DNA from: Escherichia coli
GTDB lineage: Bacteria > Pseudomonadota > Gammaproteobacteria > Enterobacterales > Enterobacteriaceae
Length of the DNA stretch: 64,000 nucleotides
NCBI RefSeq assembly: GCF_024223415.1
Contig: NZ_CP100500.1
Reading direction: 5' to 3' (one strand)
Shown: positions 35,305 to 50,700 of the stretch, piece by piece
Position numbering within the stretch: position 1 is the first letter of the stretch
How the letters are laid out: the number at the start of each line of letters is the position of its first letter
Program-made: the position numbers and the translations under genes
The notes under the pieces: generated by a model
What the model saw: only the letters and a program-made list of their open reading frames with translations
Told to the model about the DNA's origin: nothing
Databases searched by the model: none

Positions 35305-35379
35305 CATTGCTTAATGACATGATGCCGTAAAGTTTTACCGCGGTGATTAATGATGTGAAGTCAATCCAAATCAACGGAG
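35305..35379 (+). promoter_or_regulatory. conserved leader motif upstream of Rep-like genes (second copy at 42311-42344)
   Basis: cattgcttaatga...tgtgaag...tcaa...cggag occurs just before the start at 35390 and again about 150 bp before the start at 42494; the 35k copy has an internal duplication of ttaatga. Confidence 0.4.
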
Positions 35380-35389
35380 ATCTCTCATC

Positions 35390-36121
35390 ATGAATCAACC
35401 AATACACAATGCTTACTGGTTATCCCGTTTTGACAGCCTTCTCGACAGTGCCCTGTCGCAGCACCGTGCCGTCTCGTTAATCCGGGTGGATTTACGTTTC
35501 CCTGAGTATATGCCTGTCACCATCATGGATCCCGATCCGGATTCAGCGGTGATTTCTCGTTTTTTCGAATCCCTGAAAGCCAAAATCCAGGCTTACCAGC
35601 GGAAAAAACGACGTGCCAACAAGCGTGTGCGTGCAACCACTCTGCGTTATTTCTGGTGTCGGGAGTTTGGCAAGGAAAAAGGCAGGAAACATTATCACGT
35701 GATATTGCTGCTCAACAAAGATACCTGGTGCTCGCCAGGGGATTTCAGCGAACCATCTTCGCTGGCGACGATGATCCTGGAGGCATGGTGCAGCGCCCTG
35801 CATCTTGAGGCCTGGCAGGGTAATGGACTGGTTCATTTTTCCAGGCGGACGCCTTTCCGTAAACCGACATCATCTGATGCTCGCCCTTCTTCCGATGATA
35901 CGCCTTTGTCGGGTGGATGTTCTGATACCAGGAAGGCTTCAGACAAAAAGCCGGGTGAAGCCGCTGTTCTCTGGATCAAGCGTGGTGATGTGGCAGCGAT
36001 GCAGAAAGCCCGGAAAAGAGCCCGTTATCTCGTGAAAAATCAAACGAAGCAGCATAATGGTTCCGGTCAACGTAATTATGGTTGCAGCCGTGGGCCGGGG
36101 CGTCTGCTGGATGGCAGGTGA
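35390..36121 (+). CDS. YagK/YfjJ-family protein (inovirus Gp2-like, HUH Rep-like)
   Basis: 243 aa; HUH-like motif KHYHVILLL; RBS ggag; preceded by a 1.5 kb noncoding leader. Confidence 0.65.
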   Translation: MNQPIHNAYWLSRFDSLLDSALSQHRAVSLIRVDLRFPEYMPVTIMDPDPDSAVISRFFESLKAKIQAYQRKKRRANKRVRATTLRYFWCREFGKEKGRKHYHVILLLNKDTWCSPGDFSEPSSLATMILEAWCSALHLEAWQGNGLVHFSRRTPFRKPTSSDARPSSDDTPLSGGCSDTRKASDKKPGEAAVLWIKRGDVAAMQKARKRARYLVKNQTKQHNGSGQRNYGCSRGPGRLLDGR

Positions 36122-36631
36122 AGTCTGTAAAACGGTATCCGGTGCCAGGGGGGGGATATCACGGTAAGGGCGTCAGCCAACGTCTTTCGCTCGTATTCTG
36201 ATAACCCGTCCTGAAGTCATGTATCTGCTTCCATTCTCATGTTCATATTTCTCTTACGCTTTCACTGTCTGTCATCGGAAGTACCGATTTATTTTGGTGC
36301 TGCGCACTTACGGCCATTCACGGAAGAGGATTGTGGTGAACAGTAGGAGTCTGGCTGCTGGCGAGGGAAGGTTCAGGACTGGTATGGGGTTTAGTGCTGG
36401 AGGATGACTTTGAATCCCGGATTGACCAGTGAGGGGGCAGTGAGAGGATGCTCTGGTGTAACAGGTCTGGATTACAAAATATAAAACCGGTTGTACACTC
36501 GTAACGGGTAAAAGGATACGGGCAATAACACGTGGTACCCGGTGAGACTGGCTCTTGTATCACATTACCGGGAATATTCTGGCAGGTGAAATGTTCTGAT
36601 AAGAATCATCCTGAGGGAGGATACAACGGAT

Positions 36632-37084
36632 ATGAACGTTATTGACAGCCGCATTCGTGATGTGAAATTTGGTGAAAATGTGAAAGTCGTCATGCCAGTA
36701 AACCTCTATGAATGTGAACTGGGGGATGATGTTTTTATCGGTCCCTTTGTGGAAATACAGAAGGGATGCATCATTGGCAACCGGAGCCGAATTCAGTCCC
36801 ACAGTTTCATCTGTGAGAACGTCATTTTAGGTGATGCCTGTTTCATCGGTCATGGCGTAACTTTTCCTAATGATCTGTTTAAGTGTGGTGGTCCCGATAC
36901 CTCTGCAGAAAGCTGGATACGCATCGTATTAGGTAACACTGTAACAGTGGGTAGTGGAGCGACCATTTTAACAACAGAAATTTGCAGTGGAGCTGTGATT
37001 GGTGCTGGTAGTGTGGTTACAAAGCCCGTGCTGGTAAAAGGCGTGTATGCGGGTAATCCGGCCAGACTTTTGAGAACGCTTTAA
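36632..37084 (+). CDS. hexapeptide-repeat (left-handed beta-helix) acetyltransferase
   Basis: 150 aa with repeated [LIV]-G-x-x-x-x hexapeptides (IGNRSRIQSHSFICENVILGDACFIGHGVTF...); RBS gaggga. Confidence 0.75.
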   Translation: MNVIDSRIRDVKFGENVKVVMPVNLYECELGDDVFIGPFVEIQKGCIIGNRSRIQSHSFICENVILGDACFIGHGVTFPNDLFKCGGPDTSAESWIRIVLGNTVTVGSGATILTTEICSGAVIGAGSVVTKPVLVKGVYAGNPARLLRTL

Positions 37085-37335
37085 TTATTGAATCCAATAT
37101 TAAACCAGACAGACAGTAAACATAATACTGTTCCGGATATCGCTTGCCGCAGGAACCTCCTTAACATTCAGGAAAATAAAGCTTTTATTGCTGCTATGTA
37201 CCATAAGAGACAGAAGTAATTGATTTACCAGTATTACACCTGTTGAAGCTATGGTTATTCACCTTTTATTTTTTGAGCAGCGTATTTATACTTCCCGGAG
37301 CATTGTTTAAATATAATCGCCCGGGATTGATTCGT

Positions 37336-38241
37336 ATGGCTCTTGAACAGGAAATCGCAAACCTTGTAAACGAGTTTGTCGCGGCTGGTCGTCCATCCTG
37401 TCGTGACCAGACCTTTGATGAACGCCGTGCCGGATATATCGCAAGTACTGCTCTGGCCGGCGATACAGAAACCCGCGTAAACATCAGTGATGTGATTATT
37501 GACGATGTTTTATTGCGCATATTTTCGCCTTTAAACGATGATGGGGTGTTATCCGCAATTGTCTATTATCATGGTGGCTGTTTTGTCAGTGGTGGTTTTG
37601 TAACCCATGATAATCAGTTGCGACAGCTTGCTTTCCTGAGCGGTTGTCGTGTCATTGCTGTACAATATCGATTAACGCCGGAACATATTTATCCTGCGGC
37701 ACATGACGATGCTGAACATGCCGCTAATATTGTGTGGCAACACGCAGAAATGTTGAAAGTTGATCGCAACAGAATAACGTTAATGGGGGATAGCGCTGGG
37801 GGACATCTTGCACTGATAACAGCACTGCGGGTTAAAAACATCGGTCAGTGGTTACCGCGAAAATTAATACTTATTTACCCTATGCTGGATGCCACAGCAT
37901 CATGTGATAGTTACAAATTAAACGGTAGTGACTATGTGCTGACAGCAGACACGTTTCTTAGTGGTTATGAGGCTTATTTTTCCGGTCAGGATTTAGAACA
38001 TCCGGAAGTGAGTCCATTATTCAGGAATGATTTCAATGGGTTACCACCTGTTCATGTCATCACAGCGGAATATGACCCATTACGCGATGAAGGTGAGGAA
38101 CTGTTTTCCCGTATGATTCAACAAGGAGTAAAGTGTACCGCCCAGCGTTATCTCGGTGTCATTCACGGTTTTTTCCAGCTTGGCGGCATTAGCCAGACAG
38201 CCCGTAATCTGATGCAGGATATTTGTGGGATTGTTAAATAA
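37336..38241 (+). CDS. alpha/beta hydrolase, esterase/lipase (HSL/Aes-like) family
   Basis: Oxyanion-hole motif HGGCF (YYHGGCFVSGG) and nucleophile motif GDSAGG; start placed at the internal Met MALEQEIANL (track ORF begins at 37243). Confidence 0.65.
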   Translation: MALEQEIANLVNEFVAAGRPSCRDQTFDERRAGYIASTALAGDTETRVNISDVIIDDVLLRIFSPLNDDGVLSAIVYYHGGCFVSGGFVTHDNQLRQLAFLSGCRVIAVQYRLTPEHIYPAAHDDAEHAANIVWQHAEMLKVDRNRITLMGDSAGGHLALITALRVKNIGQWLPRKLILIYPMLDATASCDSYKLNGSDYVLTADTFLSGYEAYFSGQDLEHPEVSPLFRNDFNGLPPVHVITAEYDPLRDEGEELFSRMIQQGVKCTAQRYLGVIHGFFQLGGISQTARNLMQDICGIVK

Positions 38242-38487
38242 TCACGTAACAAGCAGCTACAGGTAAATTAGCTGAGCATGCATCCATCATTTGTCGCTGC
38301 GATGCCAGACTTCCGGATGCTCATATGTTGTTTTACTTTTGTCAGCATAAATGCTGCGTCGGGACTGGTGAATGGAGATAAGCCATTTTATTATCGACGT
38401 CAGAGAACATACTCACAATGTCGGTATGTTTCTGAAATTAAGGGTAAGTTTTGCGCTGATTACAGTATGCGAAGGAGATCTGGCACA

Positions 38488-40080
38488 ATGAATCCCGCTT
38501 ATATGCAATCCCCCCATTTCCCGGCAGATTTAACATACAGATTATTTCCTCGTAAGCTTGCGTATCTCATTGACGACTTATATGAAAGTACCCAACTTCC
38601 GCTGGATCTCATTTTTAATACTGTACTGGCAACGCTCTCACTCTCCTGTCAGTCATTGGTTGACGTTGTTCATCCTCACACCAACATGCCGGAACCCTGC
38701 TCACTTTATCTGTTGACAATCGCAGAGCCAGGCGCGGGAAAAACAACGATAAACAGACTGGTGATGAACCCCTGTTACGACTTTGCCGATCGACTCATTC
38801 AACAATACGAAGAGAGAAACAAAGATTATAAAACTGAACTACAGATCTGGAATACCCGACAGAAAGCTCTTTCTGCCAGTTTAAGAAAGGCTATTAACCG
38901 GGGGTATCCGGGAGAACAGGAAGAAGAGGCGCTGCGTAATCACGAAAGAAATAAACCGACACGTCCGGTTCGACCGAATTTTATCTATGAAGATGTTTCA
39001 CTTAAAGCGCTTGTGGAAGGACTCAACGAGCATCCGGAGGCGGGAGTTATTTCTGATGAAGCGGTAACTTTTTTCAGAAGCTATCTGAAAAATAGTCCTG
39101 GTCTGTTGAATAAAGCATGGAGTGGACAACCGTTTGATTTTGGACGGGCTGACGAGAAATATCATATCACTCCACGCCTGACATTTTCGCTAATGTCCCA
39201 ACCGGATGTTTTTACGGCTTATATAAATAAAAATGATGTACTGGCCAGGGGAAGCGGATTTCTTTCCCGGTTTCTGTTCAGTCAGGTTGTAAGTTCTTCC
39301 TGGATACGTGATTATACGAGAGGTGAGTTCAGAACAATACCAACCCTGGAGAATTTTCATAAAAAGATTAACGGATTTCTGTTAAGCCATAACATTAATT
39401 CCCCCGGCATGAGCACCGAAAGGAAGACATTAAAACTTGCGAAGAAAGCGTTGGGGGAGTGGCAGGAAAACCAGAGTAAGATTGAAAGCAAAGCGCTTGC
39501 AGGAGGGGAGTGGGAACACATCAGAGATATTGTTCTGAAAGCAGGTTCTAATATACTGAGGATAGCGGGTTTATTCACCTTCTATGGCAATAAAGATGCT
39601 GAGGAAATTGAATCAATTGCGCTTTTTAACGCCATGCATCTCATGGACTGGTATCTGGAGGAGGCAAGCGCAATATTTTATCCCATGTCTGAGCGACGCC
39701 AGTTTGAGCAGGATGCCTGTGAACTGTATGCATGGATTATGACCCGAATCAGGCAGAATAACTGGTGTGCTATCAGGAAAACAGATATTGAAAGATATGG
39801 TCCCAATCGACTGAGAAGAGCAGAAAAGCTTACACCTGTACTCAATCAGTTAATTGCTCAGAATTATTTCTGTATCATCAAAATGCGCTCGCATCAGGCA
39901 CTTTATGTTTCTGTTCGTAACAATAATGGTTACCTCCTTCCTTTCGGCACAATGTCTTACGAACCGTTTGATGTTGTACCCTCCTTGTATAGTCATAATG
40001 CGAAAATATATCCCGTTAATATTCCACCGGAATTAATCCAGTCATTTGCGTTACCTTTTTCAGCCTATAACTTATTCTGA
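38488..40080 (+). CDS. DUF3987-like primase/helicase-type P-loop protein (YfjI-like)
   Basis: P-loop AEPGAGKTT; start placed at the Met with RBS aaggag (track ORF begins at 38278); typical partner of AlpA and Rep-like genes in P4-like islands. Confidence 0.65.
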   Translation: MNPAYMQSPHFPADLTYRLFPRKLAYLIDDLYESTQLPLDLIFNTVLATLSLSCQSLVDVVHPHTNMPEPCSLYLLTIAEPGAGKTTINRLVMNPCYDFADRLIQQYEERNKDYKTELQIWNTRQKALSASLRKAINRGYPGEQEEEALRNHERNKPTRPVRPNFIYEDVSLKALVEGLNEHPEAGVISDEAVTFFRSYLKNSPGLLNKAWSGQPFDFGRADEKYHITPRLTFSLMSQPDVFTAYINKNDVLARGSGFLSRFLFSQVVSSSWIRDYTRGEFRTIPTLENFHKKINGFLLSHNINSPGMSTERKTLKLAKKALGEWQENQSKIESKALAGGEWEHIRDIVLKAGSNILRIAGLFTFYGNKDAEEIESIALFNAMHLMDWYLEEASAIFYPMSERRQFEQDACELYAWIMTRIRQNNWCAIRKTDIERYGPNRLRRAEKLTPVLNQLIAQNYFCIIKMRSHQALYVSVRNNNGYLLPFGTMSYEPFDVVPSLYSHNAKIYPVNIPPELIQSFALPFSAYNLF

Positions 40081-40856
40081 AATAAACCAACACAGATGAA
40101 ACGAAAAAAAACAACATTCATTCGAAGGTTGGTGGTAAGGAGTTTGCATATCCTGCATCTGTGCAAATATTCACCAGTTATGGGGCGCGAACGAAAATTT
40201 CTCTGAAAAAATCGCTACGGTAGCAACAGTAGCAGCACATGCACCATGTCTGTTATTTGATTTTGTTTTCATAATGACCTGTTGTCAAAGCTGATTGAAT
40301 ACAGGAGTGTGCGCACTGGTGGAAGAGTGGCTTTCGTTTTTGGTTATTCGAAAGAAAATCGAAATATTGTTTTTAACATAGCTGAAGCTAATCATATAAC
40401 CATATTTTTTGAGTTTTTATATATAACTTTGTTTGATTCTTGTCGTAATGAGTGCTGGCGTATATGACGATGTCGCTCTCTTTCTGAATAACGAAAGGTT
40501 ATCAGTCTTTTACTGACAAGAGATGCTGTTCAGGTTTCAATGGGAGATTGAAGAAAAACGATTTGATATTTTCCGTGAGAGAATGTCTTGTCAGGTTCAT
40601 ATTCATAACGGATAATTTCTTATTTTCACTCATCAGACATGGATAATTTTAATTTAGGTTTATTACTATAATTAGTATCTGTTCCTTTATTTTTATCCAT
40701 CTATCCCTTTATTTTTCATCTATCTATCCTTTTATTATTAGTATCTGTATTTTTATTATTGGCATCTGTCTATTTATTTTTATCATTCTCTCCTCTCTGT
40801 CTTTACTCTCATTGCTCTTACTCTCATTCTGTTATTTCTACTCGTGTTATCGTGTT

Positions 40857-40944
40857 CACTCTATCACTCTATCACTCTATCACTCTATCACTCTATCACT
40901 CTATCACTCTATCACTCTATCACTCTATCACTCTATCACTCTAT
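40857..40944. repeat. 8-bp microsatellite (cactctat) x11 inside a pyrimidine-rich repeat-dense noncoding region
   Basis: Eleven perfect tandem copies; degenerate ~22-bp and ~14-bp repeats lie just upstream (40660-40856). Confidence 0.9.
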
Positions 40945-41689
40945 CCATCTCTCAATCATAACGATTGTCACTCATATGATACTCAGCCATGTTATTTTCT
41001 ACTGCTCTGCTGAGCTTATCTGTCTGTTCTCATCTTCAGTGAAACAGCACCTGATTTTACTCTTATCCATCATGAACTGTCTTTGTTCAACGATGATGGT
41101 ATGTCTGATATGTGTTAACCATTTTGATGGGTATCGTTGATTATCCGATGGTTAAGCTTCGATAAGGTTATCCATAGAACAGTGTGGGGTAAGCAACATG
41201 ATCCCTGATGATATTTGTTCCGTGTTGTCTTGTTGTTTAAGCGACAGGAAATATGTCAATGGCATGTTTTATTCTGCTGCCGTGAGCCATGCATGTTCTG
41301 AAGAACAGATTGAATGAGCGCATGTGAGTTTATTACGTTGGCCTTGTACACGTTTTTTTAGAACCACTGAGAGCAAGTTTGTAGTTTATGATGCTATTGG
41401 TCGTAATATGTTTCTTGAACTTTTGATCGTGGGTTTTTATCTCGTATTTTTCAGCATTTCTCGGTGTTGTATTGCGTCGATATTTTCTTTATTCCCGTTA
41501 ATATCATCTCGTCAGTGTCCATTCCTTTCATCACAATGCGTATCGTTAATAATCTGTTGTATCCATCCGCCTACAGCATGCCTGATAAATACCGTCTGTC
41601 AGTTATTACCGTTTTAGATCTGATTATGAGCGAAGGTATTCATTCGCTGACAGAACTTAAAACGTCATTAACTTACAGGAGTTATCAGC

Positions 41690-42240
41690 ATGCCTCAGTC
41701 TTACACACCAGACTGGTTTTTTACCGCCTTACTTGACCATCACATCGATCAAATGATGGCTCGCTATTCCTGTCTGCGGGCCTTACGGATGGATTTCTTC
41801 TACAGGAAAGAGACGCCTGATTTCTTACAACCTGATCACCGCTGGCTTGAATTGCAGTTGCGTATGCTGCTGGACCAGGTTGAACGGTTTGAAAATATGG
41901 TTGGTTTCTTCTGGGTGATTGAATGGACGGCTGATCATGGTTTTCATGCGCATGTGGTTTTCTGGATCGATCGTCAGAGGGTGAAAAAATATATCCCTTT
42001 GCGGAGCGGATAACCGAATGCTGGCGGGCTATTACGTATAACTGTGGTTCGGCGCACCGCTGTACATACCAGCCGCATTATGCATACAACATCAACATTC
42101 CCGTGCGCCACAACGATCCTGAAAGCATCGATAATATTCGCGGTGCCCTGCATTATCTGGCGAAAGAAGAGCAAAAAGACGGACTGTGTGCATACGGCTG
42201 CAGCGAAGTGCCTGAACGTCCTGCTGCAGGGCGACCACGC
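41690..42240 (+). pseudogene. YagK/YfjJ-family Rep-like gene, frameshifted
   Basis: MPQSYTPDWFF...DHGFHAHVVFWIDRQ (HUH-like HAH) then continues in another frame (...ITYNCGSAHRCTYQPHYAY...ALHYLAKEEQKDG...). Confidence 0.5.
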
Positions 42241-42493
42241 AAGCTTCACGTCTGAAGCTTAAACCCTGAACCTCCGCACCTGGAAACAAGCCATCGGTAA
42301 AAACTTACCGCATTGCTTAATGATGTGAACCGAAGTCAACGGAGTTCATTCACCCTGAATGTTCTTTCCTGATATTCCCGCTCAGCGTCGGTTCTTCACC
42401 TGTTCCATCAACCTCATCCGCAGCCTGTAACCCGTCAGCCCATCCATCCCCGGGCAGGACGCGTTGTGGGCTGCGCATAACGGAGCATATCCT

Positions 42494-43069
42494 ATGAATG
42501 CTTTCCCTTATTTCGACGACAGCATGGCCCCCTTCTGGCCTTCGTATCAGAACAAAGTTATTGGCGTTCTTGACCGTGCGCTGCGTGAGCAGTCCGGCTC
42601 CCGGATACGTCGTATCCTGCTTCGTCTGCCGTGGGAACCCGATAACACCTTCAGCAGCCGCAGGACCTGGTTCGGTATGGCCTTTATTGAAACCGTCAGC
42701 GACCTGATGAATGCAACCCCCGGACGTGACCTCTGCTGGCTCCTGACACGTCATCCTGAAAAGCTGGAATACCACGTGGTGCTGTGCGTCAGGCAGGAGT
42801 ATTTCGACGGCCCTGAACTGGATCGGCTGATTCTGGATGCCTGGAGCAACGTGCTGGGCTTCGCCTCACCGGGGGAAGCGGCACCGTATCAGAAGCAGAT
42901 TACCCGGGATGTGCTGCTGGATCCCCGTTCACCGGACTGCGAGGAACTGTTCAGAGACCTGATCTGGGCGTTCAGTGATTTCGCACGTGATCGCCGGGGG
43001 GTATACGATCCGGAAGCCCGTCACCTCGCCGGTAATCCCTGGTATCCCGGATCAGCAGGACGGCGCTGA
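42494..43069 (+). CDS. YagK/YfjJ-family-like protein
   Basis: Start at the ATG with RBS ggag (MNAFPYFDD...); ...EYHVVLCVRQEYF... region; sits between the frameshifted paralog and alpA. Confidence 0.5.
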   Translation: MNAFPYFDDSMAPFWPSYQNKVIGVLDRALREQSGSRIRRILLRLPWEPDNTFSSRRTWFGMAFIETVSDLMNATPGRDLCWLLTRHPEKLEYHVVLCVRQEYFDGPELDRLILDAWSNVLGFASPGEAAPYQKQITRDVLLDPRSPDCEELFRDLIWAFSDFARDRRGVYDPEARHLAGNPWYPGSAGRR

Positions 43070-43133
43070 ACATCATGTTCAGCCGTTCCCCCGAACTTAC
43101 ACATCCTTCCATTTCACCGAGGATATTCCGACC

Positions 43134-43367
43134 ATGTTGAGCACAACAACATCCCACGACAGCGTATGGTTGCGTGACGACGATCCCCTGATCGACATGA
43201 TTTTCATCACCAGTTTCACCGGCATGACCGACAAATGGTTCTACCAGCTGATGAGCGAAGGCAGGTTCCCGAAGCCCATCAAACTGGGCCGCAGCAGCCG
43301 CTGGTACAGAAGCGAAGTGGAGCAGTGGATGCAGCAGCGCATCGAAGCATCACGGGGAGAAGCATGA
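43134..43367 (+). CDS. alpA: AlpA-family phage regulatory protein (small HTH)
   Basis: 77 aa; ...LIDMIFITSFTGMTDKWFYQLMSEGRFPKPIKLGRSSRWYRSEVEQWM... is the classic AlpA/prophage CP4-57 regulator signature; RBS gagga. Confidence 0.75.
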   Translation: MLSTTTSHDSVWLRDDDPLIDMIFITSFTGMTDKWFYQLMSEGRFPKPIKLGRSSRWYRSEVEQWMQQRIEASRGEA

Positions 43368-43548
43368 AAGGTATTGTGATACCGGTTCGCTGGCAATGTG
43401 CAAACTGCCGGCGCTGGTATTGTGGTAATCCCCCCTGCCCCTGGTGCTGGCGACCTGCTGCACCGTCTGTCATTCCTCATCCTTCGCTGTAACAGGCATC
43501 GTACCGGTGCCGGCGTGCTTTCCTGTGCACCGGCACCGGTTCAGAAAC

Positions 43549-44085
43549 ATGCAAAGAGAGCAAATCGTGCAGATAACCGAAACCGTACTTTCAGAGCCGG
43601 TGGAAATCCGGCGTTTTATTCAGCAGGCGGTGGATCACTGGCCGCGTCTGCTGGCCGTTCAGTTCACACTTCATTCAACAGGAGGAAATTGTGACGGGAG
43701 GCAGATTCATGCGTTTTACTGGGCATTTTACCGACAGCTGAATCAGCGAAGCCATACCGGATATCCGTTACTGCCGGTGGTGCTACGCTGGCTGCGGGAA
43801 ACGACAGAAAGCACAGACAGCACCGGGATACGCTGTCTGTTGCTGATCAGCCAGGATCTCATTTGCCCACCAGGATCCAGAATGACGTCTGATGACGCTG
43901 ATTCGCACCTTGTGGCGTTACTGCAGCAGGCCGGCACCACACTCACGGCAGAAGGGCACTGTACGGTGGTATGCTGTTACAGGGTGGTGCGTGCAGCCAC
44001 ACCTGAAGGCGCTGAGTCACTCACGGCATTCAGAAACGCGTGCCTTTCGTTGGCCAGGCCCGTGATGGCCGGCATCATCCGCTAA
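43549..44085 (+). CDS. hypothetical protein (island-associated), start uncertain
   Basis: ORF 43444..44085; first ATG in a plausible context at 43549 (MQREQIVQITE...); no recognisable motif. Confidence 0.35.
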   Translation: MQREQIVQITETVLSEPVEIRRFIQQAVDHWPRLLAVQFTLHSTGGNCDGRQIHAFYWAFYRQLNQRSHTGYPLLPVVLRWLRETTESTDSTGIRCLLLISQDLICPPGSRMTSDDADSHLVALLQQAGTTLTAEGHCTVVCCYRVVRAATPEGAESLTAFRNACLSLARPVMAGIIR

Positions 44086-44211
44086 GCAACATGATGTATC
44101 CCGGTTCAGCCGCTGAAACCGGCTCCTTCAGCAGCAGACCGGTATGAGGTTGTTCCCCCGGACATTCCTTCGTAGAATCCGTGCTGTGTTCGTACTTCCG
44201 GAGCCGTCGCC

Positions 44212-47057
44212 ATGAAAATCTGTCTTTACCATACCCTGAATCCTGAAACGATCCCGGGCTATAAAAAGTTTGCGCAGGCCATTGAGGCAGATAATTTCGC
44301 GCAGGCGGATGTGCGTAAAATTGATACTAATCTCTACCGGGCACGCCTCAGTATCCGGGATCGGTTGTTGTTTTCACTTTACCGTTACCGTGGTGAGACG
44401 GTCTGCCTGGTACTGGAATATCTGCGTAACCATGCTTACCACACGTCACGTTTTCTGCGCAGGAATGTGGTGATCGACGAGGCGCGGCTGCAGCTGCAAC
44501 CGGTGCCGGATCCGGCAGATGCAGACGCCGGTACACTGACGTATCTCAACCCCACTCACGGGCGTTTTCACTACCTGGATAAAATGCTCTCTTTTGATGA
44601 TGACCAGCAGGCGCTGTATGAACATCCGATGCCACTGGTGATTGTCGGCTCCGCCGGCAGCGGAAAGACGGCACTGTTACTGGAGAAAATGAAGCAGGCC
44701 GGGGGCGATATTCTGTATCTCAGCCTTTCGTCATTTCTGGTGGAAAAAGCCCGCACACTCTATCACGCATCTGGTGAAGAACATGACGGGCAGACCATTG
44801 ATTTTCTGTCGCTGAGCGAGTTTCTGGAAACCCTGCGCATTCCGGAAGGGCGGGAGGTGACGTTCAGTGCGTTCAGCAACTGGCTGCCCCGCAACCGGAC
44901 CACCGCTGCACTGGCCTCTGGCCATACCCTGTATGAGGAATTTCGTGGTGTCATTGGTGCCGTTGCTTCTGACAACGGACCGCTGTCCCGGGAGGCGTAT
45001 CTGTCGCTGGGAGTACGTCAGTCACTTTATGATATGGATGACCGTCCGGCGGTTTACGCCCTGTTTGAGCGTTATGTTGCATGGCTGAAACAGTCGCGTC
45101 AGTATGACAGTAATCTTCTCAGCCACCAGTACCTGCCACTGGCCGGGCACCGTTATGATGTGGTTTTTGTGGATGAAGTGCAGGATATGACGCCTGTGCA
45201 GCTGCGGCTGGTTCTGAAAACCCTGCGTCATCCCGGTCAGTTTGTACTCTGCGGCGATGCCAATCAGATAGTTCATCCCAGCTTTTTTCCTGGAGTGCCC
45301 TCAAAAGCCTCTTTTTCCGGCAGCAACAGAACGAGGCTGCCGTGAATATTCTGCAGGCGAATTACCGTAACGGGCACCATGTCACCGCACTGGCTAACCG
45401 GCTGCTCAGACTTAAACTGGCCCGGTTCAGTGCCATTGACCGGGAAAGTCACCATTTTGTCAGAAGCTGCGGGCAGACGGAAGGCACCATCAGGCTGCTG
45501 GAAGACCGGGAAGCCACCCGCCATGAGCTGAACAGCAAAACCTCCCGCTCAAACCGTGTGGCGGTGATTGTGATGCAGCCGGAGCAGAAAGCACAGGCCC
45601 GGCGCTGGTTCAGTACACCGCTGGTTTTTTCGGTTCAGGAAGTGAAGGGGCTCGAGTACGAAACGGTGATCCTGTACAACATGGTCAGCAGTACCCGTAA
45701 GGCATTTGATGATATCTGCGAAGGGATCAATCCGGCAGATCCTGAGGGTGAGGTGCGTTATGCCCACCCCCGGGACCGGCAGGATCGTTCAGCAGAAATC
45801 TACAGGTTTTTCACCAACGCGCTGTATGTTGCGCTCACCCGTGCCACGCACAACGTGTACCTTGTTGAGCAGGAGGTGGCCCATCCGCTGTGGTCCCTGC
45901 TGGCCCTCACGCATCATGAAACGCAACTGGAGCTGCAGGAAGAGATTTCCAGCCGTGATGAGTGGCAGAAAACCGCTCACCTGCTGGAAAAACAGGGGAA
46001 GCAGGAGCAGGCGGACACCATCCGCAGTATGATCCTGCAGGAGTCAGAAGTACCGTGGCAGATCTTCAGCGCAGAGGATGCGCGGCAGTGGAAACAGCAG
46101 ATCCTCAGCGGGACGGCGGACAAAGCCACGAAACTGCAGGCGCTGGAATACAGCCTGATTTATTCCCTGTTTCCGCTGTATAATGCGCTGTACCGGGAAG
46201 ATTTTAAGCCCACAAGGCAGCCCCGGACCCGGAGCCAGCAGTTACTGGAGCAGAAGTATTTTCGTCCCTACTCAGTGAATAATCCGGTCGCCGTGCTGAG
46301 GGATATTGAACGTTATGGTGTTGATCACCGCTCGCCGTTTAATCTTACGCCGCTGATGCTGGCAGCCCGGGCGGGGAACACGGCGCTGGTTCAGTTGCTG
46401 CTGGATCGTGGTGCCGATCCCACGCTGACGGCAAATGACGGGCTGGCGGCGTATCATCATGTTCTGTCAGCGGCGGTCAGCACGCCCCGTTATGCGCAGC
46501 AGAAGGGGGCACAACTCTATGCCTTGCCGGGACCGGAAAGCCTGTCACTGCAGGTGGAAGGGCGGCTTGTCAAACTGGACAACCGGCAGATGGCAATGTT
46601 TCTGGTGATCCTGATGCAGGCATTGTTTTACACGCATCTGGGGAATGCTCTGGTTTTTTCAGAAGCCTTCAGTGCGGCACGACTGGCAGAGTGTGTCGCC
46701 CACTTTCCTGAAGCCCTGCTGCCGGAACGCCGCAGGCGGAGGAATTATATCAGCAGCCAGCTTTCTCAGCATGAAGTTAACAGCAAGAACCCTTATGGAA
46801 AAAAGCTGTTTCTGCGACTGAGGCATGGTCAGTATATTCTTAATCCGGGGCTGAAAATCAGGCAGAATGACGGGTGGTACCCGGTTTACGACTTGCAGTC
46901 ACCGGAAGATCTCGGTCATGATTTACAGACGTATCTGCAGGACATGCCCCCGTACATTCTGGAGATTCTGGGGGGCAGGAAGGATGTTTACGAACAAAGT
47001 AAGGGGTCTGTCGGATACTGGGTGGCGATGATCCGCCGTCACAGTGGTGAGCCGTAA
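44212..47057 (+). pseudogene. UvrD/Rep-like SF1 helicase with C-terminal ankyrin-like repeat, split by a -1 frameshift
   Basis: ORFs 44212..45345 and 45342..47057 are consecutive parts of one helicase: Walker A GSAGSGKT, Walker B VFVDEVQD, GDANQ, then QANYRN and ALTRA motifs in the second frame; ankyrin-like TPLMLAARAGNTALVQLLLDRGADP; adding one T to the T6 run at 45283-45288 restores a continuous frame. Confidence 0.7.
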
Positions 47058-47125
47058 TGTTCCGCACTGCGCGGATATCCTGAAACATGTTCTGTTAATG
47101 TTACCTGGTTCAGAAGAGATAAACA

Positions 47126-48115
47126 GTGAGCAGCAGGAAAGAGAAAAATACGCCCACGCCGCATGATGCCGCCTTCAGGGCGTTTATGGCCTCAGCAGAG
47201 GTGGCCCGTGATTTTGTTGAACTGCATCTTCCGGCGGAATACCGGCAGTTGTGTGATCTGTCGACGCTGCGGCTGGAGCCCTGTACCTTTGTGGACCAGG
47301 ATCTGAAACAGTATGCGTGCGATGCGCTGTTCAGCATGAAGACCGTCAGCGGTGAGGAGGGGTATATTTATTGCCTCGCGGAACACCAGAGTACGGAAAA
47401 CGCGTTTATGGCGTTCAGGATGCTCAGATATGCGGTGGCGGCGATGCAGCGTCACTTTGAACAGCACCATGAGCTGCCGCTGGTGATCCCGCTGTTATTC
47501 TACCACGGTGAGCGGAGCCCGTACCCGTACAGCATGAACTGGCTGGAGTGTTTCAGAAATCCGGAACTTGCTGCTAAAATCTACACCAGACCGTTCCACC
47601 TGGTGGACGTGACGGTACTGGATGACGATGAGATAATGCAACACCGCCGAATGGGGGCACTGACGCTGCTGATGAAACACAGCCGCAGCCGCGACATCAT
47701 GCTGCAGATGGACAGGCTGGTTCAGCTGATACAGACTTCACTGAATGAAGAGCTGGCGAAGGCTCTGTTCCACTATCTGCTGAACGGCAGTGAACATGTG
47801 ACGGTAAGGTTTTTGCAGACGCTGGCGGAGCGGCTGCCACAGCATGAGGGCAACATAATGACACTGGCTGAACAACTGAAGCAGGAAGGGGAAGTCAAGG
47901 GATTTGAGCGCGGTATTGCCCAGGGTATGGAGCGCGGTAAGCTAGAAGGCAGAATGGAAGGCAGAATGGAAGGCCGTGCCGAAGGGCGACTCGAAGGACA
48001 ACTGGAAGGCAAACTGGAAACGGCGCGTAATATGTTGGCTGAAGGAATGGGGCTTCAGACCATCATGAAAATCACGGGATTGAGTGAAGAACAGCTGAAA
48101 AAAATCAGCCACTGA
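47126..48115 (+). CDS. Rpn-family recombination-promoting nuclease (YhgA-like, PD-(D/E)XK)
   Basis: 329 aa; N-terminal ...HDAAFRAFMASAEVARDFVELHLP... and C-terminal EGRMEGRMEGRAEGRLEGQLEGKLE repeats typical of Rpn/YhgA-like proteins. Confidence 0.8.
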   Translation: MSSRKEKNTPTPHDAAFRAFMASAEVARDFVELHLPAEYRQLCDLSTLRLEPCTFVDQDLKQYACDALFSMKTVSGEEGYIYCLAEHQSTENAFMAFRMLRYAVAAMQRHFEQHHELPLVIPLLFYHGERSPYPYSMNWLECFRNPELAAKIYTRPFHLVDVTVLDDDEIMQHRRMGALTLLMKHSRSRDIMLQMDRLVQLIQTSLNEELAKALFHYLLNGSEHVTVRFLQTLAERLPQHEGNIMTLAEQLKQEGEVKGFERGIAQGMERGKLEGRMEGRMEGRAEGRLEGQLEGKLETARNMLAEGMGLQTIMKITGLSEEQLKKISH

Positions 48116-48588
48116 AGCATTGAGGCGTGATGTATAGCACGCCTCGTTCTGTCTGACAGTATTTTGTTTCCTGTGTATTTGGTCGTTTCAGGTCAACCTT
48201 TGTCGGGAGCCTGGCGTTGGTACCTGCTGAGGAAAGAGGGAACTGGACGCAGAGTGACAGTCTGCGAATTGCAGGAAGAGGATGCGAAAGTGTTCGCTTC
48301 TTCCATTGTGTCCCTGATTTAAATTCGGATACTCAAATCTGAAGCGGTGACTCGTATACGTGTGAGTCACCGGGACTACCGCTTGAGTGATGAAAAATAG
48401 TCGTGTTAACGCAAAGCTGAAGTGACACATCTTATTTCAGCGAATGCGTTTGACCGCCTTACTATACACTTTTGAGCATTCTCTTTTCCTGACGGAAACC
48501 ACGAAGACGACAATCTTCTCGTCTATAACCTGATATACAAGGCAAAAAACCGTCAAGAGCAGGAGCAGGCGGTCCGCCAGACAGTCCA

Positions 48589-48909
48589 TTGCATAAGGCT
48601 ATCAGCTATATCCTGAAACGACCTGATGAGCTGTGCCGTTTTCTGGATGATGGCTCTGTGCCACCGGACAACAATATCTGCGAACGAGCCATCCGCCCGG
48701 TCACGCTGGGGCGAAAGGCATGGTTATTCGCAGGCTCGCTGATGGCCGGCAAACGCGCGGCACAGATAATGAGTCTTCTGGAAACAGCAAAGCGTAATGG
48801 TCTGGAGCCACATGCCTGGCTGACGGACGTACTGACGCGCCTGCCGGAGTGGCCTGAGGACCGACTGGCTGAGCTGCTGCCTCTTGAGGGATTTACCTTC
48901 TCCGGGTGA
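48589..48909 (+). pseudogene. IS66-family transposase C-terminal fragment
   Basis: ...NNICERAIRPVTLGRKAWLFAGSLMAGKRAAQIMSLLETAKRNGLEPHAWLTDVL... matches the conserved IS66 transposase C-terminus; no N-terminal part or accessory genes. Confidence 0.6.
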
Positions 48910-49004
48910 CACAACACCTGCCGTCAGGTCTTTGCACACCGGGCCATGGCCTGCTGTCGGGCGTTGAGCGCCTGACAGCGGGTTATTGAGAAAGTCAGTC
49001 ACCA

Positions 49005-49150
49005 TGCGCCTGGCTGACAGTCAGGACCTGCACGTCAGCGCCTCCCTTACCCTGGTCAGGACTTCACTGCCTGCCACAAACTCCCGTGTCAGTACTTCGC
49101 GGCCTGACGCGCTCACCCTACTCAGTCCTTCAGAGCCCGCCTCCGGTACC
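49005..49150. repeat. four to five degenerate ~34-bp tandem repeats at the sitB truncation point
   Basis: Units beginning gtcaggacctgcacgtcagcgcc..., gtcaggacttcactgcctgcc..., tcagtacttcgcggcctgacg..., tcagtccttcagagcccgcc...; they produce the repetitive tail of ORF 49021..49392. Confidence 0.5.
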
Positions 49151-49257
49151 TGGCAAGGCAGACGCCGGGGCGCAATAAAATAAATCAACCATCGCAGGGC
49201 GGCGATCATTCGCAACAACCGCTGATGACGAGCCCAGAAACGTGTCAAGACGATTTC

Positions 49258-49392
49258 ACCGGAACCGTTTACCCCAAGCAGAGCGGCAATAGATCCGCCT
49301 GGTACTGTGAAGGATGCATCGCGCAGTGCTTTCTGCCCGTTTCGCCAGGTGACAGTAACGCCATTAACGACAATACCCGCAGATTGCATCAT
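49258..49392 (-). pseudogene. sitB: sitB 5' fragment (metal ABC transporter ATPase), truncated
   Basis: MMQSAGIVVNGVTVTWRNGQKALRDASFTVPGGSIAALLGVNGSG then homology is lost inside the Walker A motif. Confidence 0.6.
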
Positions 49393-50306
49393 TACTTCTC
49401 CCTTTTCCCGGCTTTAATTCCCTGCACCAGCGTACTGGTAGTAACCTTCAGAAGGTCGATATACGTAGGTACCGGGCCGTTTTCTGTGCTCAGGGAATCG
49501 ACATAGAGCACACCGCCGTAGTGTGCGCCGGTTTCACGCGCAACCTGACGCGCTGGTTTATCGGAAACCGTACTCTCACTAAATACCGCTGGGATATTAT
49601 TTTTCTTCACTATATCAACCACTTTACGTACCTGCTGGGGGGTTCCTTGTTGATCGGCATTTATCGGCCACAGATAAAGCTCTTTTAGCCCCAAATCGCG
49701 TGCGAGATAAGAAAAAGCCCCTTCACTGGTGACCATCCATCTTTTATTCTCAGGGAGTTCAGCAATCTGCTTACGCAGGGGGGCAAGGGTTTGGGTAATC
49801 TTGGCTTTATAAGTATCGGCATTACGTTGGTATGTTTTTGCATTTGCCGGATCGTATTTTATCAACGCATCACGAATATTATCGACGTAAATCAAAGCAT
49901 TATCTGGCGACATCCAGGCATGAGGGTTAGGTTTTCCCTCGTAGGGGCCTTCGGTGATCCCTACTGGCGTCACACCCGAAGAGACAATCACTTCTGGAAC
50001 ACCACTGAGATGCTGGTAAAAGCGCTGGAACCACAATTCCAGATTCATACCGTTGGCGAGAATCAGTTGTGCCCCCTGCGCACGTTTAATATCGCCAGGG
50101 GTAGGCTGATACTCATGAATTTCTGCACCGGGCCTGGTTATGGATGAGACTTCTGCAGCATCTCCAGCCACGTTTTTGGCCATATCTGCGATGATGGTAA
50201 ATGTTGTAATGACCTTGAATTTTTCAGTTGCACTCGCCTGAAATGCTATCGAGCAGGTGAGGGCGAGGCACCCCAGGAGCATGGTTACTTTTTTTATTGA
50301 GTGCAT
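49392..50306 (-). CDS. sitA: SitA, Mn/Fe ABC transporter periplasmic substrate-binding protein
   Basis: 304 aa with signal peptide; ...EKFKVITTFTIIADMAKNVAGDAAEVSSITRPGAEIHEYQPTPGDIKRAQGAQLILANGMNLE... closely matches recalled SitA. Confidence 0.85.
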   Translation of the reverse strand: MHSIKKVTMLLGCLALTCSIAFQASATEKFKVITTFTIIADMAKNVAGDAAEVSSITRPGAEIHEYQPTPGDIKRAQGAQLILANGMNLELWFQRFYQHLSGVPEVIVSSGVTPVGITEGPYEGKPNPHAWMSPDNALIYVDNIRDALIKYDPANAKTYQRNADTYKAKITQTLAPLRKQIAELPENKRWMVTSEGAFSYLARDLGLKELYLWPINADQQGTPQQVRKVVDIVKKNNIPAVFSESTVSDKPARQVARETGAHYGGVLYVDSLSTENGPVPTYIDLLKVTTSTLVQGIKAGKREK

Positions 50307-50493
50307 AATTCAGTACCTATAGTGAGTAAAATTAGAACAAACATAGCAACGGCTATGTTTTATAGCATAAGCTATACACAATGCAAATGATTATCATTAG
50401 TAATTCAGACCCCAACACAGGCATTAGGTTGTTTCCTGCTGGCGATGTGGTATTGAGGAAAAGCGTAGGACAGATATCAGGCTTTGAAAGTAA

Positions 50494-50700
50494 GTGTTAA
50501 GTTAAGCGAACGCCGTATTGACGCTTACCCCAATGGGAGCACCATATTCCATGGCAGGAGTTCATCAACCATGCAGGAAGGCCATTCCGGTAGAACGTTC
50601 AGGATATGGCGCAGATACGCTTCCGGATCGATACCGTTCAACCGACAGGTTCCGATTAGTCCGTACAGCAGGGTACCACGCATTCCCCCCAGGTCAGTTC
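50494..50700 (-). pseudogene. IS66-family transposase C-terminal fragment
   Basis: Minus-strand translation ...LYGLIGTCRLNGIDPEAYLRHILNVLPEWPSCMVDELLPWNMVLPLG* matches the C-terminus of the intact IS66 TnpC at 12049..13587. Confidence 0.5.

Follow-up and report, generated by a model that had tools for sequence, protein, structure and literature searches.

The RelE, YoeB, HigB and YafQ mRNA interferases are free toxins of ~90 amino acids (aa), and multidomain RelE-type toxins have been reported as putative defence proteins (the Gerdes survey, PMC11980606). Cami1, a CARF-RelE ancillary effector of CRISPR systems, is an earlier example of a RelE fold joined to a sensor. Nhi and Hachiman HamAB follow the logic of a helicase sensor or motor coupled to a nuclease effector, and RNase L, with its ankyrin sensor and RNase effector, is also listed among the closest known systems. 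Here we describe a locus within a stretch of 64,000 nucleotides (nt) of Escherichia coli contig NZ_CP100500.1 (hereafter, the window). It encodes a broken superfamily 1 (SF1) helicase with a RelE/YoeB-fold N-terminal domain, followed by a nuclease gene of the Rpn family. The helicase gene in the window is a genuine, inherited and recently inactivated pseudogene. The explanation of the whole that we favour, with a confidence that stops somewhat short of probable, is that a solitary multidomain protein has been pseudogenised here, and that its intact form would be an ATP-driven sensor-effector in conflict between bacteria and mobile elements.

The initial annotation read two consecutive open reading frames (ORFs) as a single SF1 helicase of roughly 948 aa, broken in a run of six T residues, and comparison with intact alleles bears out both the joining and the site of the lesion. 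The parts of the broken gene are:

44212..45345, + strand: ORF1, the 5' part of the broken helicase gene; 377 aa in frame 1, with residues 1-359 native and the last 18 out of frame
45342..47057, + strand: ORF2, the 3' part of the broken helicase gene; 571 aa from a GTG start, one base off the ORF1 frame
45283..45288, + strand: T6 tract, the site of the -1 frameshift; T7 in intact alleles, T6 also in E. coli strain GF60

The ATG at 44212 is the first start past an in-frame stop (44173-44175), and the addition of one T to the T6 run yields a single ORF of 948 aa. Intact E. coli alleles (L013, L014 and L016, 948 aa each) read T7 at the junction and otherwise are identical to the window over 90 nt across it, save one linked single-nucleotide polymorphism (SNP) 21 nt upstream. 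A more distant intact homologue, Eco889/EC958 (WP_001545777, 949 aa, 82% nt identity), reads ...HPSFFSWSS... over the junction. The break falls within the invariant helicase motif GDxNQIVHPxFFSW, directly after GDANQIVHPSFF (motif III), and interrupts the SF1 core of the window copy. Residues 360-377 are missing from both split products; thus, the window copy should be inactive. The GTG of ORF2 overlaps the TGA of ORF1 as GTGA, with GAGG 7 nt upstream (45331-45345). The 571-aa fragment could be translated by coupling, and both fragments are possibly made, but a functional enzyme from the split copy is unlikely.

Between a true frameshift and a homopolymer error, the two readings that the initial annotation had set side by side, the evidence supports the former. 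The independently assembled GF60 genome has the same T6, and PGAP labels the gene 'frameshifted'. The exact 377-aa product is recorded on 73 contigs and the exact 571-aa product on 47 (NCBI, ENA and Logan), and the recorded 571-aa fragments match the window sequence save for single substitutions. The T6 allele also carries its own SNP background. Four intact alleles share 16 amino-acid differences from the window protein, and the T6 and T7 lineages differ at 49 nt (33 synonymous and 16 non-synonymous). Because 33 of the 49 differences are synonymous, we conclude that most of this divergence arose under purifying selection and that the inactivation is recent.

The domain order of the ~950-aa protein is a RelE/YoeB-fold N-terminal domain, an SF1 UvrD-like core, a helical hairpin with ankyrin repeats, and a basic, probably winged-helix C-terminal domain:

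44212..44466, + strand: N-terminal RelE/YoeB/HigB-fold domain (aa 1-~85), with near-invariant K36, R43, R51, E69, H74, Y76, S79 and F81
44599..45890, + strand: SF1 UvrD-like helicase core (aa ~130-560), cut by the frameshift; identified from Pfam, partial NCBIfam matches and motif conservation
45948..46520, + strand: helical hairpin and ankyrin-repeat region (aa ~580-770), the clearest repeat at aa 704-750 (46320-46460)
46539..46895, + strand: C-terminal alpha/beta domain (aa ~777-895), probably winged-helix-like, from winged-helix-like matches

The core encodes a Walker A motif, GSAGSGKT, at 44647-44670 (aa 146-153), motif II as VDEVQD (aa 321-326), motif III as GDANQ and motif VI as VALTRA. 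All SF1 motifs are intact in relatives, and motifs I and II are invariant across them. Pfam matches over aa 140-552 (AAA_19, E 5e-5; UvrD-helicase, E 6e-5; UvrD_C, E 5e-3; UvrD_C_2, E 2e-3) are weak but coherent, and recur in homologues. By motifs and profiles, the window protein is a member of the SF1 (UvrD/Rep-like) helicase superfamily. A family-level match was not identified in PADLOC and NCBIfam, where only partial matches to RecB, HelD, PcrA, GajB and Nhi were found, every one well under the family cutoff. The C-terminal ankyrin repeat proposed by the initial annotation is present both as motif (residues 707-750; Pfam Ank_5, E 4e-7, and Ank, E 3.5e-6) and as fold (matches to PDB ankyrins down to E 5e-23). 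The domain that follows carries a conserved basic motif, RRKKRxYISSxLSKNE, and the last ~50 aa are variable.

The N-terminal domain had been said to resemble, loosely, a RelE/HigB-like fold. As a statement about fold this holds: the AlphaFold2 model (built on a 53-sequence alignment) is confident, with a pLDDT of 90.9, and has the compact antiparallel sheet of the RelE/ParE (BECR) fold. As a statement about sequence family it does not, as no Pfam superfamily model matches. A cognate antitoxin was not identified either, there being no conserved small neighbour beside the helicase in about 15 contexts. Because membership by sequence model fails and an antitoxin is lacking, we call the domain RelE-fold rather than a RelE family toxin. 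Among 104 divergent representatives, seven of its residues (K36, R43, R51, E69, H74, Y76 and S79) are each retained in 98-103 sequences and F81 in 104/104, and position 80 is R or K in 100/104. The conserved polar set lies on the sheet and the C-terminal segment, a pattern suggestive of RNase-type members of the fold. In an hhalign comparison with a provisional E. coli YoeB sequence the N-domain profile takes the expected register, which places the polar set where the catalytic residues of RelE and YoeB lie, but at an insignificant probability (0.8%), and any equivalence to YoeB E46/R65/H83/Y84 depends on that insignificant register. A sequence-profile search of the PDB with the domain returned only chance-level matches to polysaccharide deacetylases.

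The initial annotation considered this architecture unusual for a bacterial helicase. The family is indeed uncharacterised, but the architecture is common: an exhaustive search at E<=1e-30 gave 435 clusters (50% identity) that keep it at full length. At E<=1e-10 the clusters number 2,260, and the homologues run to several thousand. A first family search gave 4,348 matches among the candidates scored, typically ~950 aa long and ~50% identical, from diverse Gammaproteobacteria. Annotations of family members go no further than 'hypothetical', 'ankyrin repeat' or 'UvrD-helicase domain' protein. A description of the RelE-fold-helicase-ankyrin architecture was not found in the open-access literature, including Zhong 2023, Gerdes 2025 and Vassallo 2022; the Gerdes 2025 survey of multidomain RelE/ParE toxins contains neither 'UvrD' nor 'ankyrin', and the count of 'helicase' in it is 0 (PMC11980606).

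The gene is accessory in E. coli, where 99 of the 5,426 complete genomes have it (89 times on the chromosome and 10 times on a plasmid). Plasmid records with the helicase number 131, of which 103 are from Shigella; plasmids of Piscirickettsia, Methylosinus, Deinococcus and Thermus also carry it. All Shigella pINV-type plasmids that the plasmid search recovered have the helicase, and the Shigella virulence-plasmid records with a homologue cover all four Shigella species. On pCP301 (L020 4938-7850) the intact copy, SF_p0234, is 86% identical at the amino-acid level, is annotated 'orf, conserved hypothetical', and lies beside shf-rfbU-virK-msbB2. No copy was found by tblastn in 50,697 phage genomes. 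In E. coli strain 1105 (L018 5313-8158) the helicase gene has undergone a second, independent pseudogenisation, with a frameshift and an internal stop, in another island that adjoins a cdiBA locus.

Neighbourhoods vary. The copy on a Piscirickettsia plasmid lies among DruA, MazEF, RelE/ParE and SIR2 genes, that of Nitrococcus in a region rich in toxin-antitoxin genes, and a HipA module is next to the copy at L023. A recurrent neighbour of the helicase was not identified in about 15 contexts; thus, we conclude that the helicase acts as a single-gene unit. Some longer members carry C-terminal SEC-C-motif, DUF1186 or UPF0149 (YecA-like) extensions, and the Endozoicomonas locus has a stand-alone DUF1186+SEC-C gene (L009/L010 13873-14922) 3 kb past the helicase. 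The SEC-C/DUF1186 fusion may hint at a functional link.

We predict that the intact protein would act as a single-polypeptide, ATP-driven sensor-effector in defence, abortive infection or element maintenance. The helicase, ankyrin and winged-helix module would recognise, or translocate on, a nucleic-acid or protein cue. The cue, in turn, would license RNA cleavage by the RelE-type N-terminal domain, most plausibly of ribosome-bound mRNA, with translation arrest as the result. Given that no antitoxin gene accompanies the helicase, the toxin-like domain may be held in check in cis by the rest of the protein; such autoinhibition of the N-domain is a conjecture. A role in conflict is consistent with the accessory distribution on islands and plasmids in E. 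coli and Shigella, with the defence and toxin-antitoxin neighbourhoods of the Piscirickettsia, Nitrococcus and L023 (HipA) copies, and with repeated decay, including the independent pseudogene in E. coli 1105. It is possible, if doubtful, that the intact family constitutes a new class of antitoxin-less, helicase-gated, RelE-type translation-arrest enzymes, serving either as single-gene immunity or as the bacterial equivalent of mRNA surveillance coupled to a helicase.

Several observations weigh against the sensor-effector explanation. A published characterisation of the family was not found in the open-access literature, and PADLOC gives only partial GajB-like matches to helicase motifs and no match at the family level. 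Full-length identity of 40-50% across bacterial orders is more reminiscent of a conserved function in the cell than of a rapidly evolving immune gene. Pfam RelE, YoeB and HigB models do not match the N-domain, the first 130 residues are without any Pfam match, and a weak ParE_like (PF24732) match appears in only 4 of 53 relatives (best E 2e-3). The putative catalytic assignment draws on conservation and the insignificant profile alignment, and a RelE fold can serve purely as a binding module. Copies in Halomonas and Pistricoccus and at L023 and L024 lie amid metabolic genes without defence neighbours.

The main rival, which we consider rather unlikely, is that the protein is a cellular factor for surveillance of RNA or translation. 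Here the RelE-like domain would dock the helicase at the ribosomal A site, or at another RNA-protein complex, and the protein would clear or cleave stalled mRNA as an enzyme of stress response or quality control; E. coli would have acquired the gene horizontally and would now be losing its copy. Such a role would suit a gene that stands alone in Halomonas, Pistricoccus and two metagenomic genomes, surrounded by metabolic and housekeeping genes, that keeps a constant length along with its 40-50% identity, and that is missing from the phage genomes searched. The SEC-C, DUF1186 and UPF0149 extensions of longer relatives, and the DUF1186+SEC-C gene near the Endozoicomonas copy, point the same way; SecA-type metal-binding domains bind SecB and ribosomes. 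A housekeeping role, however, predicts syntenic, vertically inherited loci, and none were seen. In E. coli the gene is patchy (the 99 of 5,426 genomes given above) and always on islands or plasmids, it has been pseudogenised repeatedly, and some copies lie within clear defence or toxin-antitoxin clusters.

An improbable alternative is a helper in the replication or maintenance of mobile elements: a Rep-like SF1 helicase that works with Gp2-type rolling-circle initiators encoded upstream, the RelE fold and ankyrin repeats being only interaction modules. The window has such a gene 5' of the helicase:

43567..44085, + strand: upstream island-backbone ORF of 172 aa, Gp2/YagK-YfjJ/UCP030791-like

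On E. coli islands the helicase without exception comes after AlpA and a Gp2/YagK-YfjJ-like gene of like orientation. In inoviruses, replication by gpII relies on Rep, an SF1 helicase of the host. The retention of the helicase on the pINV-type plasmids of Shigella that the plasmid search turned up would also suit a maintenance function. Yet the Gp2-like neighbour is absent from Shigella-type virulence plasmids, Halomonas, Nitrococcus, Endozoicomonas, Pistricoccus and Piscirickettsia, and in Enterobacter ludwigii it lies on the strand opposite to the helicase. Moreover, a pure adaptor would give little reason for the near-invariance of the K/R/E/H/Y set of the RelE fold. A Rep-like helper role is possible in enterobacteria, but leaves the family elsewhere unexplained.

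It is highly improbable that the T6 run is a homopolymer sequencing error, or a site of programmed or phase-variable slippage from which full-length protein is still made. A T-run is a classic slippage site, the GTG of ORF2 overlaps the stop of ORF1 and is preceded by GAGG, and two further homopolymers of the window are one base shorter than those of GF60, at 41352 (T7 vs T8) and 41983 (A6 vs A7), so the window assembly may undercall homopolymers. Sequencing error is nevertheless rejected, given that T6 recurs in GF60 and in the assemblies behind the 47-73 contigs with the split products, with allele-specific SNPs. Programmed frameshifting or phase variation is rejected as unlikely: each of the other family members examined is encoded by one ORF, the heptamer C-TTT-TTT departs from the canonical X-XXY-YYZ pattern of -1 sites, and T6 is short for efficient transcriptional slippage. 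The differences at 41352 and 41983 could reflect added decay in the lineage or homopolymer undercalling in the window assembly; that at 41983 truncates an inovirus-Gp2-like ORF (41690-42013), of which the GF60 version is intact (188 aa).

The initial annotation also placed an Rpn gene directly downstream of the helicase, which is correct, and suggested that helicase and nuclease might form a defence pair, which the distribution of the two genes largely refutes. The features at the 3' side of the helicase are:

47126..48115, + strand: rpn, encoding a nuclease of the Rpn (YhgA-like) PD-(D/E)XK family (TIGR01784, 175.7 bits vs a cutoff of 52.1), with a variable C-terminal tail
48121..48146, + strand: terminator-like hairpin 3' of rpn, identified by consensus match only

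The two genes are on the same strand with a gap of 68 nt, in which a terminator-like site was not found, and 78 complete E. coli genomes retain the pair, among them those of sequence type 131 (ST131). In the window, GF60, the ST131-type island and the islands with intact alleles, rpn follows the helicase; together these make up one E. coli island lineage only. An rpn gene is not beside the helicase in E. coli PapRG-04-4, E. coli 1105, the Shigella-type virulence plasmid of CFSAN029787 or pCP301. Nor is it in Enterobacter ludwigii, Salmonella, Halomonas, Nitrococcus, Endozoicomonas, Pistricoccus, two metagenomic genomes or the Piscirickettsia plasmid. In all, about 14 contexts outside that lineage lack the linkage, four from E. 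coli/Shigella. Rpn paralogues occur in 1,214 genomes, against 99 for the helicase. Many ST131 genomes (e.g., EC958) have an IS21 element (istAB) inserted into rpn beside an intact helicase. A paper that uses neither 'helicase' nor 'operon' (PMC10400941) describes Rpn proteins as gene-within-gene toxin-antitoxin systems for defence that are self-contained, the antitoxin being translated from within the gene. A two-gene helicase and nuclease defence system is the least probable of the explanations considered: same-strand adjacency across 68 nt in one retained island lineage is set against the absence of rpn elsewhere, its splitting by IS21 in ST131, the autonomy of Rpn proteins and the far greater number of Rpn paralogues, and Rpn is rejected as a partner of the helicase. 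The initial annotation had named homologues consistently unlinked to Rpn, and of known function, as telling against the pairing; unlinked homologues were found, and they are without a known function. We conclude that rpn is an independent neighbour and a separate, self-contained unit.

The island orthologue of the window Rpn has PF04754 and HTH_Rpn_C domains. The first ~250 residues of the two proteins are nearly identical, and identity over the whole protein is 86%. The tail, at 47885-48030 (EGRMEGRMEGRAEGRLEGQLEGKLE...), differs in length and sequence from that of the orthologue beside the intact helicase allele. The Rpn tail is hypervariable, as in descriptions of the family. Two sigma-70-like promoter matches lie inside rpn (47552-47637), 5' of in-frame Met codons at 47636 and 47651; promoter-like sites in the rpn region are no more numerous than in shuffled sequence. 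The arrangement would fit the internal promoter and the internally translated Rpn_S antitoxin that have been described for Rpn genes (PMC10400941).

The integrative island of E. coli that carries the helicase gene, at its distal end, is of the AlpA/YfjI/Gp2 type, and its backbone comprises YfjI/DUF3987, several inovirus-Gp2/YagK-YfjJ-like genes and AlpA. The window matches GF60 (NZ_CP172185) at 99.1% over 35321-50567, and in the 4.1 kb compared at 44100-48200 the only SNPs are two, at 44915 and 46012. The 172-aa ORF upstream of the helicase is 82% identical to a PF27752 protein 5' of an intact helicase allele. Relatives of it were not found upstream of the Nitrococcus or E. ludwigii helicase copies, and it is absent outside enterobacterial islands. 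As an island-backbone Gp2/UCP030791-like protein that is not conserved beside the helicase, it was rejected as a partner or antitoxin. The island is followed by IS66 debris and a truncated sit operon. Downstream of rpn (48437-50306) are what is left of a RelE/StbE toxin gene, a piece of an IS66 transposase (48589-48909) and a truncated sitB; sitA is intact (49392-50306), and the island edge is strongly decayed. An intergenic region of the island holds a perfect 8-bp tandem array, TCACTCTA x 11.2, at 40856-40945. In the window this array is 48 bp (6 units) longer than in GF60, and copy number thus differs among close relatives.

The locus in the window is an ordinary pseudogene beside an ordinary Rpn gene, and the helicase and Rpn do not form a unit as a system. 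The wider interest is in the family, which is large and uncharacterised, with members on the Shigella virulence plasmid as well as in E. coli ST131. Its RelE-toxin fold was missed by Pfam, NCBIfam and PADLOC models, and a near-invariant polar site is kept. If the N-domain is a helicase-controlled RNase, it would represent a new form of regulation of RelE-type toxins, in cis, by an ATPase and without an antitoxin, and the protein would be a new candidate, encoded by one gene, for a role in bacterial immunity or the control of translation. Intact alleles occur naturally (e.g., EC958 WP_001545777 and pCP301 SF_p0234).

Compared with known systems, the helicase shares motifs (Walker A, DExx, GDxxQ and VALTRA) with UvrD, Rep, PcrA, RecB and HelD and with GajB of Gabija. 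The recB model gives only a partial match to the window protein (35 bits vs a cutoff of 696). The best PADLOC match is GajB (E 1e-11), confined to aa 313-407, or about 95 of 540 profile positions. A GajA-like partner is missing beside the window helicase, and the N- and C-terminal domains are unique to the helicase family. The PADLOC match to Nhi is weak (E 1e-6 over 56 residues), with no match at the family level. Lacking a full-length profile match, identity with Gabija, Nhi or another PADLOC family is rejected. The window Rpn shares a variable C-terminal tail with the Rpn_L/Rpn_S toxin-antitoxin defence genes (PMC10400941) and is an equivalog neither of RpnA nor of the PRK09956 model (303 bits vs a cutoff of 583).

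Unlike the free RelE, YoeB, HigB and YafQ toxins, the RelE-fold domain described here is the N-terminus of a 950-aa helicase; no Pfam model of that superfamily matches the window protein, and an adjacent antitoxin gene is absent in every context. The sensor of Cami1 is a CARF domain that binds cyclic oligoadenylate, whereas the candidate sensor here is the SF1 helicase with its ankyrin and winged-helix regions, and the helicase family has no CRISPR association and no detectable sequence relationship to Cami1. The effectors of Nhi and HamAB have a DNA-nuclease fold, whereas the predicted effector here has the RelE (RNase-type) fold. Overall, we rate the protein as fitting the multidomain members of the RelE superfamily or the helicase-effector conflict proteins.

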